Shown in pieces: positions 10,184-39,240 of a stretch of 64,000 bases of DNA (the stretch's first letter is position 1; the number at the start of each line of letters is the position of its first letter). Source of the stretch: Vulcanimicrobiota bacterium (GTDB lineage: Bacteria; Vulcanimicrobiota; Vulcanimicrobiia; Vulcanimicrobiales; Vulcanimicrobiaceae); assembly GCA_963723515.1 (NCBI GenBank), contig CAVRQT010000002.1:64001-128000 (forward strand), read 5' to 3'. Both the position numbers and the translations under genes were made by a program. The notes beneath the pieces were generated by a model that searched no databases, was not told the origin of the DNA, and saw only the letters and a list, made by a program, of their open reading frames with translations.

Positions 10184-10267
10184 TGCGCGAGACTGGACTC
10201 GAACCAGCACGCCCTTGCGGGCGCTAGCCCCTCAAGCTAGTGCGTCTACCAATTTCGCCACTCGCGC
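10184..10267 (-). tRNA. tRNA-Leu(GAG), CCA not encoded
   Basis: Reverse complement GCGCGAGTGGCGAAATTGGTAGACGCACTAGCTTGAGGGGCTAGCGCCCGCAAGGGCGTGCTGGTTCGAGTCCAGTCTCGCGCA: 7-bp acceptor stem, anticodon arm CTAGC-TTGAGGG-GCTAG, long variable arm, TTCGA T-loop. Confidence 0.97.
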
Positions 10268-33515: not shown

Positions 33516-34851
33516 CGAAGTATCCTTTCAGCGAGTCAACGCTGATGCGGTCCTGCCGCATTGAATCGCGATCGCGAACGGTCACGGATTGGTATTCTAG
33601 TGTTTCATAATCAACCGTGACGCAGAACGGCGTGCCGATCTCGTCTTGGCGCCGGTAGAGTTGTCCGATGTTGCCCTCGTCATACTGCGTCCGAAGCTTC
33701 TCGTGGAGTGATGATTCGATCGAACGCGCGCGTTCGACTAATTGCGGCTTGTTTCGCGGCAAGCGAAAAGACGGCGACCTGCAGCGGCGCAACCTTCGGA
33801 TGAAACCGCAGGACGACGCGCTCCGTCTCTTTACCGTTCGGATCGACGCTCTTCTCCAATTCGTAGGCATCGATCAGCATCGTCAGCGTCGTGCGGTCCA
33901 TTCCGGCCGAGCTTTCGATCAAGAGCCGGCGTATAATGCGTTTTCGTCGCTTCATCGAAGAAGCGCAAATCTTTGCCGGAGAGCCGCATGTGCGCATCGA
34001 GGTCGTATGTACCGCGGTGGGCGATCGACTCCAGTTCGCCCCAGCCCCACGGAAAGAGATATTCAACGTCAACACCGGCTTTCGCATAATGTGGACGCTC
34101 TTCGGCGCTCAATTCGTAGAAGCGCAAGCGATCCGGTTTGACGCCGTAATCGGCGTACCATTTCTTGCGAGCCTGCACCCAATGCTCGAACCACTTCAAG
34201 TCGTTGCCGTCGTCGGGAACGAAATATTCGAGTTCGGCTTGCTCGAATTCACGCAGGCGATACGTTAAGTTGCCCGGCGTGATTTCATTGCGAAACGCTT
34301 TGCCGAACTGCGCGACGCCGAATGGCGGCCGCTTGCGAGCGGTTTGATAGATGTTTTTAAAGTTAACGAAGATGCCTTGCGCGGTTTCGGGGCGCAGATA
34401 CGTGCGCGAAGCTGAATCCTCCATCGGCCCGAGCGATGTCTGCAGCATCAAATTGAAATTGCGCGGCTCGGTAAACGAATGTTTCGAGCCGCAGTCCGGA
34501 CAAACGTCTGGATTCTCGAGGTGATCCGCGCGAAAGCGATGCTTGCAGACGCGACAATCGACGAGGCGGTCGACGAAGGCGTCCAGGTGCCCGGAGGCTT
34601 TCCACGCCGAGTGGGTGCATCAGAATGGCGGAGTCGAACGCCACGACGTCGTCACGTGACTCGACCATCTCGCGCCACCAGGCTTCCTTTATATTGCGCT
34701 TTAGGAGCGCTCCAAGCGGGCCGTAGTCATAGACGCCGGCGAGGCCGCCGTAGATGTCGCTCGACGGGAAGATGAAACCGCGGCGCTTCGCGAGTGCCGT
34801 GATCTCTTCCAAAGATGCGCCGGTCGCTTGGGCATGCTGCTCGACCGTCAC
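33502..34851 (-). CDS. glyQS: Glycine-tRNA ligase, homodimeric alpha2 type; frameshifts near 34610, 33930 and 33760
   Basis: [52 protein letters not shown] and [12 protein letters not shown]. Confidence 0.95.
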
Positions 34852-35243
34852 CCCTGACCTCGCTTCGCGAGAAATGCCGCTGCCATGCGCTTCGGCGCGC
34901 GCGCGAGCCATGCTTCGGTCATGAGATTCTTCAATTCTCGAATGCCGATCTTACTGAGCTGCACCAAGATGGCCGGATAGCCGTCGAAATGCGGCGTCGT
35001 AAAGTACACGCGGGGGTTGCTTGCAAGGAGCACGTCCTTCATTTCAAGGTCGGCAGTCCGCACTCCCAAGATCTGGCCCTTCGGCGCTTTATCGCCAAGC
35101 GCAATCAGGTCCGAACGCCGCAGCGGACGCTCCCAAACGAAGAACTTATCGCCGACCGTCCACGCCGCGCGCTCGTGTGACTTGATTTCCTTGGCCGCCG
35201 GAAATGCGAGCGCAATCCGGCGCACATCCCGCCAAGAAGCCAT
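34848..35243 (-). CDS. MmcQ/YjbR-family protein
   Basis: [28 protein letters not shown] and [10 protein letters not shown]. Confidence 0.85.
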
Positions 35244-35300
35244 AAGAGCGCGACTTTGTTGCACGTAAAGCACCGGTTCCTTGAGGAGCGCTGGGAACGC

Positions 35301-35925
35301 CTACGAGGCTTTAGGAGAACCGTCCGATTCAGGCGGTGGTACTGGCCAACGACAATGTAGTTCCATCCGGTGCGTACCGCGAGGATAAGAACTCCAGGAT
35401 GAGACTTTATCCAGTCTTCGGACAACGCTGCCAAATATTCAAAGTTCTCCCAGCCGGCGTTCGTGTCCATCAACTCACGACCAGTGCAGTGAAGGGCTCG
35501 AGTCGCTTCCACGCCCCCGATGTGAGGGCGCAATACTGGTCCACAGACAACTTGGGGTCCACGATCTGGTGGCAGAACCATCAGACCAAGTGAGTCAAAA
35601 GTGTTTCCAACGAGCACGACGGCGTGATGCATGTCGACGTACTCCTGTTTAACATCGGACGGCGGCGGCAGAACGCCGCCAGATCGAGATCTTCATAATC
35701 ACGATAACGCGGATCTTCGAGCAACACCTCAAGACGGGCGTTGGCTAATGTGAGCCCTTGCTACGTTAAATTGCGGTCGTTCAGTTGGCCGTCGACTGTG
35801 AGCAGGGCTTGAATCTGGTTTCCGGCTCGCAGATGCCTCAGCTGCACGAGCGCTGCAATCGCCGTCGCGGCAATGATCGCGACGGTTGCGAGCGCCGCGA
35901 TTGCGTTGATCACCTCGAGCCGCAC
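35301..35925 (-). pseudogene. Degraded paralogue of 35935-36484 (DUF4760-like membrane-anchored protein)
   Basis: GTG at 35925 after an AAGGAG RBS reads VRLEVINAIAALATVAIIAATAIAALVQLRHLRAGNQ. In-frame TAG near 35762 and several frameshifts. WENFEYLAALSEDW..HP matches FENFEWLAARAERW..HP. Confidence 0.75.
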
Positions 35926-35934
35926 GTCATCTCC

Positions 35935-36484
35935 TTATTGCTGAGGGTTTGGCAGAACCGCGCCGAGCATACGTGGCTCGCCGGGTGGATAATCGCCATG
36001 CGGGTGCTGATCCTGCCAACGCTCGGCTCGCGCTGCGAGCCATTCGAAATTCTCGAAAACGTACGGAAGGCCGCGACGAACCTCCGCGACGACATCGCGC
36101 AGCAACCGCCAGTAAAGATGGACGTTCCACCACTCGGTCTGAAGAAAAACCTTCTCGTCGATGAGCCCGCTGCGCACGAAGGAACCGACATGGTTATACA
36201 TATCGCAGAGATAAAGTTCCGGATGCTGGCGGCGGTCGACCGGAATTTCGCGCAAGCTAGCGACAAACTATTCGTCCGTCATCCGATCGCTCCAGATCGT
36301 GCCGAATGTAGTTGACCAACTCCCGTACAGCGGGATCCATAAGCATGTTGAATGCGCTTTGCAAGCCCGCGAGTTGGTTCGAAAGCCGAATGTGGCGAAG
36401 TTGTACAAACGCTGCGATTGCGGTCGCAGCGATGACGACAAATGTCCCTATCGCGGCGATCGTGCTCCAAGCTTCGAGCGACAT
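35935..36484 (-). CDS. DUF4760-like protein with N-terminal TM helix; interrupted near 36260-36290
   Basis: MSLEAWSTIAAIGTFVVIAATAIAAFVQLRH in ORF 36257-36484 continues as YNHVGSFVRSGLID and FENFEWLA in ORF 35935-36255. Confidence 0.65.
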
Positions 36485-36564
36485 CCCGGGCTGGTTCCTT
36501 TAGGTCCTATAAAATACCGTTACATGAACGGTACTTACGGACGATGCGCTGAAAGGACGGCGTA

Positions 36565-37207
36565 ATGAGCAAGGTTCGCGTTGCAGCGTTTTCAGTTTCA
36601 CTCGACGGGTTCGGCGCCGGGCCGAGGCAGGACTTGAACAATCCACTCGGTGTTCGCGGCGAAGAACTTCACGGATGGTTCTTAGAGACGGAAGCGTGGA
36701 ATCAGATGCACGGTCAGAACGGCGGAAGCCGCGGCATCGATAATGATTTCGCGGTCCGATCTTTCGAGAACATTGGCGCTTGGATATTAGGACGAAACAT
36801 GTTCGGCCCCATTCGCGGACCTTGGGAAGACGATTCCTGGAAGGGGTGGTGGGGAGACGAGCCGCCGTACCACACACCGGTCTTCGTGCTCACGCATTAT
36901 GCGCGATCGCCGCTTCGGATGCAGGGCGGCACGACGTTCTACTTCGTCACCGACGGCATCGAATCGGCTCTGCAACAAGCGAAAGTGCGGCCCAAGGCAA
37001 AGACGTTCGAATCGGCGGTGGCGTCTCAACAATACGCCAGTATCTGCTGGGCACCATATTGATGAGTTGCAGCTTTCAATGTCGCCCGTGCTACTGGGCG
37101 ACGGTGAACACCTGTTCAACGACATTAACTTGCCGGCGCTAGGCTTTAATTCGATCGAGCGAGTTCCCGGCGAGCGCGCGACCCACGTCGTCATTAGGAA
37201 GGCCTGA
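36565..37207 (+). CDS. Dihydrofolate reductase/RibD C-terminal family protein; frameshifts near 36985 and 37050
   Basis: SVSLDGF, ILGRNMF, PVFVLTH, FVTDGIESA, IGGGVST and PVLLGDG. Confidence 0.88.
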
Positions 37208-37293
37208 CGTTAAACGCGGGTTGGGAGCGCTTCAGTCCCGTTTGGCTGCGTCTCGGCACGGAGTCGAACACCGCTCCGCGCCAGTGAAAACCC

Positions 37294-37677
37294 CTACGGA
37301 CAGTCGTGCCGCTGTGGGAACGCACGCCAAGCGCGGTTTGCTGCGATTTGGGCACCGTGAACATCGCCCGGATGACCGTTAAGATACGCCGATCCAGATT
37401 GCGCCGAGGTAATGCGTATCTGCGCTCCTTCGGCAACACATCGCCGAATGAAGACATTGTGGATCAGCGGTAGGTATTTCTCCGTGGAACGAAACTGTGC
37501 GAGAGCCTGCGTGTATTTGTGCCGGTCCATAAGTCGCTCTCCCGGCGCCCAACTCGCTTGTACTTCGTCGATTGCAGGTTGATCCGCTCCAAAATGAACG
37601 CATGCGCGCACATCGGACGGGAAGAACACAGCTAAGCTCAATGCGACATATGCGGCGCAGATTGAGAGCCTGCTCAT
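37294..37677 (-). CDS. Small secreted hypothetical protein
   Basis: Signal-like N-terminus MSRLSICAAYVALSLAVFF; helical; several Cys residues. Confidence 0.5.
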   Translation of the reverse strand: MSRLSICAAYVALSLAVFFPSDVRACVHFGADQPAIDEVQASWAPGERLMDRHKYTQALAQFRSTEKYLPLIHNVFIRRCVAEGAQIRITSAQSGSAYLNGHPGDVHGAQIAANRAWRAFPQRHDCP

Positions 37678-37784
37678 AGCTACATAATCTGCGTACCTCA
37701 CGTCAGCTTCCTCCGGCGTCCTACCGCCGCTGCGTGGAACGCATTGATATCTCTTCAGCGCGTGCAACGGGTGAGATAACTCAT

Positions 37785-37978
37785 GGGGGACTAGTCGTCT
37801 GCGCTGCAGAGAGCGATTGAAAACCGCTGGGGCGCTTCGATGGTGTTGACTGGCGGCTTGATACCCCGTCCAGCCCCGGGTTCGATTCCCGGGCGCTCCA
37901 GCCGCCGCAGCGCTTTGCTGTTGTGAAGTCGTGAGACGTGTGGTATTGTCGACTGGGGTATCAAGCCGAAAGACACAT
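37785..37978 (+). ncRNA. Candidate structured tRNA-mimic ncRNA (Y-RNA/YrlA-like)
   Basis: Canonical T-arm CCCGGG-TTCGATT-CCCGGG (37875-37893). Perfect 14-bp stem 37854-37867/37955-37968. GCCGAAAG at 37965-37972. D-loop-like TGTGGTAT. Intrinsic terminator immediately downstream. Confidence 0.6.
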
Positions 37979-37987
37979 TGAAACGCG

Positions 37988-38022
37988 CGAGGCGTCGCAG
38001 TAATGCGGCGCCTCGTTTATTT
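37988..38022 (+). terminator. Rho-independent terminator
   Basis: CGAGGCGTCGCA-GTAA-TGCGGCGCCTCG followed by TTTATTT. Confidence 0.85.
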
Positions 38023-38083
38023 AGCGGCAGCCGCTGTCATCGACCGAGACGCCTCAGCTTCTTTGCCTCGACGGACTCGTCCG

Positions 38084-38107
38084 CCCTTGGACAAGCTCAG
38101 GATGACA
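38084..38107. repeat. REP-like repeat copy
   Basis: CCCTTGGACAAGCTCAGGATGACA differs at 2 positions from 10004-10027. Confidence 0.8.
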
Positions 38108-38140
38108 AAGAGTTGCGCGCTATCGGGCAGCGCAGCGGCG

Positions 38141-39240
38141 TTAAGCCGTTGCTTTATGCGCCTTCGGTTGTGTTTCCGCCCGCAGTTGGCCGCACGCGGC
38201 GGTGATATCGCGGCCCATGTTCGCGCGCACCGTCACCGGTACGCCGGCCGCTTCTACGATCGCCGCAAATTCCCAAATCCTTGCATCCGGCGTAGCGCCA
38301 AAATTCCCGTCCGGCGTCGCGTTGTATGGGATCAGGTTCACATGATAGAGCCGCCCGCGCATCAACGCAGCCAACTCCTGCGCCTGTGCAGGCGAATCGT
38401 TCATGCCGGCGAGCATCACGTACTCGAAGAACACTTTGCGATTTGTCTTCTCGATGTAACGCTCGCAGGCACTCATTAGCTCGTAGAGATTCCAGCGCCG
38501 GTTCACCGGCATCATCTGCGAGCGGAGCGCGTCATTGGGTGCATGCAGCGAAATCGCCAAATTGACCTGAACCGCCTCCTCAGCAAACCGATCGATCTTC
38601 GGCACGACGCCGACGGTGGAGATCGTGATGTGACGCTGCCCTAAGCCGAAGCCGCGCGGATCGTTCAGCAAAGCCACCGCATCCATGACGGCGTCGTAAT
38701 TGGCGAACGGCTCACCCATGCCCATAAAGACGATGTTTGTTATGCGCTTGCCCTTTTGCGCAAGTGTTTGTGCAAAGAAGCGTGCCTGTTCGAAAATTTC
38801 CGTGGCGCTTAATTGCCGCGTAAAGCCGCCTTGGCCGGTCGCGCAGAAGGCGCAGCCGTACGCACAACCCGCCTGACTTGAGATGCAGACCGTGTTGCGG
38901 TCGCCGAAATGCTCCATCAAGACCGTTTCTACTTCGACGCGATCGCGCAAAGCGAAGAGCGCTTTTGTAGTTTGCCGATCGTTCGAGCGCTGCACCGTAA
39001 TCGGCGAGAGTGAATTGAGTTCGAAGCCGCTTGGCGCAAGCCAGAGCGCAGATCTTTCGGCAGTACACTGATGTCGTCGATATCGCTAAGAAGCTCTCGC
39101 GTTGCGGCGCGATAGAGTTGCGCGATCCGGTAGGGTTTCAATCCAAAGCGGCGCGCAAGGTCAGCGCCGTCAGAAAAACCAGCCGTGCGCGCCTTCTCGT
39201 CGATCCAAATCGCGCGTGCCTCTCGATTCACGGCGCTCAT
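38141..39240 (-). CDS. rlmN: Dual-specificity 23S rRNA/tRNA A-C2 methyltransferase; frameshift near 39030
   Basis: CISSQAGCAYGCAFCATG, FMGMGEP, ISLHA, VNLIPYN and DITAACGQL. Confidence 0.95.

Follow-up and report, generated by a model that had tools for sequence, protein, structure and literature searches.

What is encoded by a short stretch of a Vulcanimicrobiota genome (GCA_963723515.1, contig CAVRQT010000002.1) in which a T-arm (37876–37892) lies between two segments, 37854–37867 and 37955–37968, that are exact reverse complements of each other, and in which a terminator-like hairpin of 13 pairs (37987–38016) follows? Coordinates refer to the window, the 64,000-nt stretch at positions 64,001–128,000 of the forward strand of this contig. 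The original prediction had described these three elements correctly, had taken the 14-bp helix for a stem closing one RNA, and had proposed either a divergent Y RNA or a new class of tRNA mimic. Complementarity of this length stands out from the background: in 638 background windows of this sequence, each a comparison of 40 nt with the 100 nt that follow, complements measured 10 nt at most, and none reached 11 nt. The stretch 37845–38030 folds at z = −6.4 relative to shuffled sequences. The best reading of the element is a two-gene module of about 230 bases rather than a Y RNA, with a tRNA-like RNA followed by a short antisense RNA that has a promoter of its own (both promoters are predicted; Table 1).

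Table 1. Features of the module and its convergent neighbour, in window coordinates.
Feature	Position	Strand	Details
P1, predicted weak promoter of the tRNA-like gene	37792–37820	+	−35-like TAGTCG 37792–37797; 17-nt spacer; degenerate −10 GATTGA 37815–37820
3-nt leader	37826–37828	+	pairing possible with 37900–37902 (A73 and two bases beyond it), which would lengthen the precursor acceptor stem
72-nt tRNA-like RNA	37829–37900	+	ARAGORN, homologue structure counts, covariation
7-nt anticodon loop	37858–37864	+	anticodon GAU (Ile) 37860–37862; A37 at 37863
Variable trailer hairpin	37903–37925	+	between tRNA and P2; 3' strand overlaps the −35 box
P2, predicted internal sigma-70-type promoter	37921–37949	+	−35 TTGTGA 37921–37926; 17-nt spacer; TG 37941–37942; −10 TATTGT 37944–37949
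Predicted antisense small RNA, ~65 nt	37955–38020	+	5' end predicted
Intrinsic terminator hairpin and U-rich tail	37987–38023	+	common to antisense RNA and any P1 read-through
Radical-SAM gene, convergent, outside the module	38141–38995	−	PF04055

YrlA-type Y RNAs are defined, in passages of PMC4201824, by a motif near the 5' end, by permuted arms and by a Ro60/TROVE gene within 4 kb. The element shares a T-arm with this class, which comes to lie inside the long helix when only 37845–38030 is folded, and this copy does contain a string resembling the motif GNCGAAN(0-1)G. However, the string sits on the 3' strand here instead of near the 5' end and is present at the corresponding position in 3 of 100 homologues. 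The supposedly permuted arms gave way to a cloverleaf in normal order with covarying acceptor, anticodon, and T stems. A TROVE gene, already noted as missing from the window, was not found in the source genome (88% complete), and among 61 related genomes the only one that has it (G018) contains no match to the element. A scan of the element region against Rfam returned no family at gathering score; the best weak match was tRNA-Sec (22 bits, 37828–37900), and no Y RNA was among the six weak matches listed. Failing on motif, arm order and Ro60 linkage, a divergent Y RNA is extremely unlikely, while the idea of a tRNA mimic was right in kind. ARAGORN labels 37828–37903 as tRNA-Ile(gat), and this call brought to light an acceptor stem (37829–37835/37893–37899) that had been overlooked when the 5' limit was placed at 37854. 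According to the comparison of homologues, conservation begins at about 37826–37829, some 25 nt farther upstream. The hairpin previously seen as a closed acceptor-like stem is the variable trailer hairpin, and the presumed D-arm is the extended −10 box of P2. Also rejected was a tmRNA, in main or rearranged form, that would carry its tag downstream: a normal tmRNA exists elsewhere in the genome, and the TAA found in the loop of the terminator hairpin is not conserved. This ordinary tmRNA (G000:C1:47840–48193, 92 bits, with an unusual T-loop) was missed by ARAGORN at default settings, and lowering the tmRNA threshold produced 1685 noise calls.

Relatives of the element were found by a DNA search, with matches at E ≤ 0.01 in 28 of 61 genomes, often partial and in some genomes as tandem copies, and by a GTDB pattern scan that returned 96 stretches. 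The titles listed (80 of the 96) mostly name Vulcanimicrobiota/Eremiobacterota or their genera, and several stretches labelled otherwise have the same neighbouring gene at 61–75% identity. Of 106 distinct matches, 103 were kept after removal of three short or duplicate rows. Copy L009 among these 103 comes from the unpublished genome G029 and copy L015 among 70 aligned from the unpublished G022; no claim depends on either. The search pattern left U70 and A73 free but prescribed the six bases at the start (including G3) as well as the D-stem and the T-loop, so that the invariance of these prescribed parts is no evidence.

The tRNA-like domain presents acceptor, D-, anticodon, and T-arm in this order. 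A 7-bp acceptor stem is followed by a 1-nt connector, a D-arm of 4 bp with a 5-nt loop (37837–37849), a long and bulged anticodon arm (37850–37873) with eight stacked positions on its 5' strand, a 2-nt variable loop, and the T-arm. The tRNA part measures 72 nt in 98 of 103 copies. Across 67 distinct sequences, 98.4% of the cells in the cloverleaf pairing are paired, and two-sided changes occur in 11 of the 23 cloverleaf pairs (6/7 in the anticodon arm), which is above all 500 shuffles and six slid controls. The acceptor, anticodon, and T stems covary; the D-stem is nearly constant in the main alignment, with other D-stem sequences in divergent subfamilies. The isolated tRNA of this copy has a non-cloverleaf minimum fold (−35.3 vs −30.4 kcal/mol), and 54 of 95 family members fold within six pairs of the cloverleaf. 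This RNA lacks the features of a canonical tRNA-Ile(GAU), namely a standard D-arm, a 5-bp anticodon stem and a match at the RF00005 gathering score, and contig C3 of the same genome carries an ordinary tRNA-Ile(GAT). The window itself also contains a tRNA-Leu(GAG) at 10184–10267 (−) that is ordinary by Rfam and ARAGORN.

Alanyl-tRNA synthetase (AlaRS) recognizes G3·U70 together with A73 as the identity marks for alanine. Both are present here (37831/37897 and 37900), and U70 is found in 102 of 103 copies and A73 in equally many. The loop of the anticodon arm tells a different story. The arm is 26 nt long in 97 of 103 copies. Among these, G34 is invariant (97/97), position 37 is A in 89 and C in 8, and position 33 is U in 75 and C in 22. 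The anticodons are GAT (Ile, 68), GAC (Val, 19), GTC (Asp, 9), and GAA (Phe, 1), and none is for alanine. Reading by eye did not reveal an alanine anticodon in the divergent subfamilies either. Identity marks and anticodon thus disagree in 97 of 97 cases. CCA is not encoded in the tRNA-like gene; the genome encodes AlaRS, a PF01743 nucleotidyltransferase, and SmpB. The AlaRS gene appears in three pieces at G000:C2:554031–555559.

The ends of the tRNA-like gene are conserved as well. Watson–Crick pairing of the leader is found at −1, −2, and −3 in 93, 94, and 99 of 103 copies; none of 500 shuffles reached the value at −2 or −3, and all reached that at −1. This 3-bp leader–trailer pairing might slow trimming. 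The trailer hairpin has a mean energy of −9.9 kcal/mol vs −4.6 for one shuffle each (n = 100). A profile of 100 upstream regions contains a GA(T)NGA box, an anchor motif picked by eye, which lies 14–15 nt upstream of G1 in 84 of 100, and TTG some 23 nt ahead of this box. The genome contains 30 P1-like motif sites, a number that comes with no control count.

Downstream of the tRNA, 100 of 103 copies contain the extended −10 sequence TGnTAnnnT. A TTG −35 element precedes it at a 17-nt spacer in 92 of these 100 and at an 18-nt spacer in 6, with spacer sequences that drift. P2 is closer to consensus than P1; it is absent from the list of a consensus promoter scanner. In 65 of 100 copies, the longest perfect complement to the tRNA starts 5–7 nt past the −10 box, and the start of the complement would coincide with the expected transcription start site. 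All 99 copies in which the sequence extends far enough have a hairpin below −15 kcal/mol, and none of the terminator-like sites listed separates the tRNA from the complement. In the divergent copies L026, L027, L139, and L197 of family f3, the stretch from the tRNA to P2 contains one or two additional hairpins, which in some of these copies repeat part of the antisense sequence. A small-peptide toxin was considered and rejected: no conserved peptide was found, the sole ATG frame ranges in length from 9 to at least 68 codons, and it is stop-free no more often (38/103) than a control frame (36/102).

The complement covers the anticodon loop and arm (37955–37968 with 37854–37867), and the following segment 37971–37986 can pair with the D-arm and the 5' strand of the acceptor. 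Across the family, arm positions 6–13 are paired in 91–95 of 95 copies, in a register chosen by best fit, and pairing to the D-arm recurs in 73 of 100. The duplex predicted for a tRNA and its own partner averages −27.8 vs −14.9 kcal/mol for other partners; the own partner is the best in 53 of 100 copies and within the top 5% in 90. All 13 tandem copies are predicted to pair best with their own antisense. Cofolding, which charges the unfolding of both RNAs, leaves a net binding energy of −22.6 kcal/mol for this copy, and for the family a mean of −23.5 vs −12.5 kcal/mol with a random partner (n = 95). The 14-bp helix is best read as a duplex of two RNAs and not as a stem closing one.

Only 3 of 48 tRNA-like cores in the genome combine a complement of at least 12 nt with a P2-type promoter; the others reach at most 9 nt. 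These three are the present element, a paralog with a GAC loop (G000:C2:835041–835229, −), and a divergent copy (L133, G000:C3:1038678–1038748, −), which has a GUC (Asp) loop by eye and a promoter box, an antisense stretch, and a terminator of its own. An additional HMM match at C3:459011–459091 has no cloverleaf. The locus contains two conserved and mutually complementary RNA units, one of which combines alanine marks with a non-alanine anticodon-like loop.

Does the antisense partner go with the mismatched anticodon? To obtain an independent sample, a loose pattern (alanine acceptor, early D-loop GG, and T-arm) was applied and gave at least 120 matches each in viral and metagenome contigs and at least 208 distinct sequences, of which 131 with a fully paired acceptor and sufficient flank were kept and 77 dropped. 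Among the matches listed, an antisense partner (z < −3.5) accompanies 15 of 63 versions with a non-alanine anticodon and none of 68 with an alanine anticodon (p = 6e-6); after crude clustering, the counts among these matches are 11/37 and 0/14 (p = 0.023). Anticodon calls are heuristic in this comparison, and kin are not independent. Seven of the 15 antisense-bearing sequences resemble Eremiobacterota subfamilies. The other eight (L316, L336, L352, L389, L399, L403, L411, and L437) lie on contigs of 39–66% GC, whose proteins match the source genome weakly, briefly, or not at all, and a cluster look-up of neighbouring proteins on the distant contigs yielded no taxon. By eye, P2-type boxes precede the complement on distant contigs too. 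Of the viral sequences, L293 and L295 failed the z-test for a partner and L316 alone passed it; L428, despite a complement of 14 nt and a promoter, was left out for an imperfect acceptor. Among the matches listed, 48 of the 63 non-alanine versions, 11 of them with stop-codon anticodons, have no detected partner, although L390 and L434 look like members missed by the cut-off. A wrong anticodon, then, need not always have a partner.

In the versions with an alanine anticodon among the matches listed, the distance from D-loop to anticodon is 16–17 nt in 60 of 68; it is 17 nt in the present element and 15 nt in the ordinary tRNA-Ala of the genome. At least three other tRNAs lie alongside 43 of the 48 such versions with long flanks vs 0 of 12 antisense-bearing ones, and in 31 of those 43 the flank examined contains no other tRNA-Ala. 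Since these versions share the geometry, sit in tRNA arrays, and often are the only tRNA-Ala there, the scaffold probably decodes. This non-canonical tRNA-Ala (L214–L453; early D-loop GG, long anticodon arm, mostly UGC, CCA encoded) is common in tRNA arrays. In one phage array (L258:1501–1572) the Rfam tRNA model misses it and scores its neighbours. A search of phage records with one alanine-anticodon scaffold gave a single 36-nt unannotated match, and no paper on the scaffold was found in the literature searched.

Within Vulcanimicrobiota (Eremiobacterota) the module is patchy, present in multiple and sometimes tandem copies, and it recurs on distant contigs. A covariance model, with 32 candidates scored per genome, detected it in at least 37 of 150 genomes of the phylum with 1–5 matches each: in 32 of 70 genomes of its own family, in 4 of 9 of one other family, and in 0 of 70 elsewhere. 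A looser pattern matched 108 of 400 genomes and included at least one ordinary-looking tRNA. The radical-SAM gene, which we take to be RlmN-like from its motifs, adjoins the element in 35 of 80 loci examined, and its 3' end is a frequent site. The same site lacks the element in 5 of 5 single-contig relatives checked. No fixed partner protein emerged from varied neighbours (130 of 132 picked ORFs scanned). The family pattern had no match in IMG/VR viral contigs, a 3'-end pattern had one match in viral contigs that looks like a tmRNA end, and plasmid and phage records gave no family match.

We consider it moderately probable that this module consists of a putative alanine-misincorporating tRNA toxin that would be silenced by its cognate antisense RNA, which amounts to a two-RNA toxin–antitoxin (addiction) module. 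In this mechanism, the weak promoter P1 would give rise to a precursor that is trimmed to the 72-nt tRNA and receives CCA. By the recognition rules of AlaRS, G3·U70 and A73 should lead this enzyme to load alanine regardless of the anticodon. The GAU anticodon would then read Ile codons, insert alanine at wrong places, and make growth suffer; the anticodons of relatives would read Val, Asp, Gly, Leu, or Phe codons. The stronger P2 would produce the short antisense RNA, the pairing of which is documented by covariation. This RNA may start at the anticodon loop, zip along the anticodon and D-arms, and unfold its own tRNA, and in cis the same stretch could cover a precursor made by read-through. 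Upon loss of the locus or a drop in P2 activity, the more stable tRNA would outlast the presumably faster decaying antisense RNA. The marks at odds with the anticodon, the partner's own promoter, the copy-specific covariation, the split between non-alanine and alanine versions, and the patchy tandem copies argue for such a toxin. On the other hand, exchanges of Ile or Val for Ala are mild; the long anticodon arm, C33 and the non-cloverleaf minimum fold argue against it, as do the many non-alanine versions without partner among the matches listed, the missing plasmid, phage, and IMG/VR matches, and the many loci at one site, a concentration that fits vertical inheritance as much as addiction.

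The same chemistry could serve regulated adaptive mistranslation instead of addiction: the antisense RNA would be a switch, and stress or infection would release it so that statistical proteins are produced. This would agree with a P1 −10 box that is conserved yet non-consensus and could need an activator or another sigma factor, with the many copies at one chromosomal site, and with the antibiotic tolerance that mistranslation conferred according to parts of PMC10404621. Yet the element was not found in many near-complete relatives, single-contig genomes included, and a private antisense RNA for each tandem copy suits selfish modules better than one host switch; we regard this alternative as unlikely. 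We give equally little weight to a mimic that is charged with alanine and does not decode at all. Such an RNA could be a decoy or poison directed at SmpB, EF-Tu, AlaRS, or anticodon nucleases; one example would be the tRNA-like domain of a tmRNA that has lost its reading frame. The antisense RNA would then switch the mimic off, and the loop would be no more than a seed for pairing. Like the tRNA-like domain of tmRNA, the element has a G3·U70 acceptor, a T-arm, and, in the main subfamily, a GG-NN-UCGAC segment with a C–G-closed arm of eight positions that by eye resembles the 5' end of the genome's tmRNA; the third copy in the genome scores 21 bits with the tmRNA model, below the cut-off, U33 is not invariant, and SmpB is encoded. 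Unlike tmRNA, it contains no tag reading frame or pseudoknots, an anticodon-like loop caps the arm, the Rfam gathering score is not reached, and the permuted tmRNA model matches 17 nt of the T-arm at 12.9 bits. Moreover, divergent subfamilies swap the motif for other D-stems and keep the 7-nt loop, mostly with G34 and a purine at 37, the genome has an ordinary tmRNA anyway, and the distribution of antisense partners between alanine and non-alanine versions points at the anticodon.

Might the complement instead belong to a single transcript, as a cis mask that keeps the precursor shut until processing, with P2 as an incidental feature? The read-through RNA does fold in this way at −105 kcal/mol, and the list of terminator-like sites has no entry that would separate the two parts. 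Against this idea, promoter boxes and a spacer of 17–18 nt are kept in 98 of 100 copies with varying spacer sequence, the complement begins where +1 would fall, and by eye the same boxes stand before the complement on distant contigs. These observations make a cis mask quite improbable. Still less credible is a reversal of roles, in which the small RNA would be the effector and act on mRNAs, and the tRNA-like RNA would be a sponge for it or an antisense scaffold of the C4 kind. C4 antisense RNA, which is tRNA-shaped and processed by RNase P, provides a precedent, and P2 is nearer to consensus than P1, but the sequence of the small RNA tracks only the neighbour's arm, and a sponge needs no G3·U70, A73, or anticodon-like loop. 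The module most likely works like a type I or type VIII toxin–antitoxin pair in which the tRNA is the putative toxin.

Type I loci such as Ldr/Rdl, Ibs/Sib, and TisB/IstR are arranged in tandem with copy-specific antisense RNAs. The module resembles them in its repetition, its private antisense partner, and pairing that starts from a loop, and differs by the lack of a conserved peptide. In type VIII systems both partners are RNA, and TADB 3.0 (passages of PMC10767807) names two validated kinds, CreTA and SdsR–RyeA. As judged from sequence, the present partners would also be adjacent RNAs (two promoter motifs, terminator, no conserved ORF), and the putative antitoxin is predicted to be specific to its own toxin. 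CreT, as the candidate toxin would, acts on translation via tRNA (PMC8501985), but it does so as a mini-ORF that ties up a rare tRNA, whereas here the candidate toxin is itself a tRNA. CreA, a crRNA-like guide, uses CRISPR–Cas to repress transcription, in contrast to a putative antitoxin that pairs with an anticodon arm, and SdsR and RyeA lie on opposite strands, in contrast to a same-strand downstream gene.

Natural mistranslating tRNAs similarly combine the identity for one amino acid with the anticodon for another. Passages of PMC5389517 describe miscoding allo-tRNAs that kill E. coli and often occur near protein toxin–antitoxin systems, as well as irregular tRNAs that are charged yet not used in translation, and passages of PMC10404621 describe mistranslating tRNA-ProA/N/T that impair E. 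coli. Allo-tRNAs have an 8/4 or 9/3 acceptor branch; this RNA has a 7/5 branch and a 2-nt variable loop. The tRNA-ProX group typically occurs with a ProRS isoform, as stated in PMC10404621. The word antisense does not appear in the main texts of PMC5389517 and PMC10404621, and three motifs of the family are absent from the allo-tRNA table of PMC5389517, the supplementary figures of which may show similar RNAs. The architecture has a precedent: passages of PMC7609411 describe a working tRNA-Pyl with a 0–1-nt connector, a small D-loop and a long bulged anticodon stem, with the bulge of M. alvus tRNA-Pyl on the 3' side. Such a connector, a small D-loop, a long anticodon stem, and a tiny variable loop are shared by our element, tRNA-Pyl and type I mitochondrial tRNA-Ser(UCN), while the longer anticodon arm (eight stacked positions vs 6 bp in tRNA-Pyl), the alanine marks, and the antisense partner set the element apart from both.

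The conserved two-RNA module is real and apparently undescribed. In the literature searched, to which subscription papers and bioRxiv supplements did not belong, we found neither a description of this module nor a natural system with a dedicated antisense RNA on the anticodon arm of a tRNA. The wider proposal that the module represents a widespread and so far overlooked all-RNA class of selfish or defence elements is plausible and falls just short of probable. The toxin of such a class would be a programmable mistranslator, namely a compact tRNA charged with alanine in which the anticodon can be exchanged, and the antitoxin a small RNA directed at this anticodon; the class would derive from the likewise overlooked tRNA-Ala scaffold that is common in phage arrays and would be an example from nature of a tRNA gene under the control of an antisense RNA dedicated to it. 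Should the tRNA be toxic, the module would formally belong to type VIII, with deliberate mistranslation without protein as a new toxin chemistry. It would also explain how cells can carry miscoding tRNAs, expose a tRNA-Ala scaffold in phage arrays that Rfam's tRNA model can miss, and make the tRNA-Ile labels of ARAGORN wrong for such elements. The more than 100 natural and mutually specific pairs could serve as switchable recoding parts.

Several further observations concern the surroundings of the module and the scaffold. Small accessory genes at 34848–37767 (DUF4760 at 35935–36255, the others without Pfam match) lie between the module and a glycyl-tRNA synthetase-like gene; in genome G007 the radical-SAM gene directly adjoins the latter, which marks this locus as a variable cargo site. 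A short palindromic repeat at 38085–38108 is also found after the C3 copy and in many relatives, and this repeat swamped a BLAST search made with the third copy of the genome. Several housekeeping-like genes, among them one like pyruvate phosphate dikinase and one like glycyl-tRNA synthetase between 29976 and 46641 of the window as well as the AlaRS gene in three pieces, appear to be split across frames, which suggests indel errors in the assembly. Finally, scaffold versions with an apparent CUA or UUA anticodon and without antisense (L266, L295, L298, L304, L347, L381, L395, L397, and L418) are, within the limits of heuristic anticodon calls, possible alanine-inserting amber or ochre suppressors.
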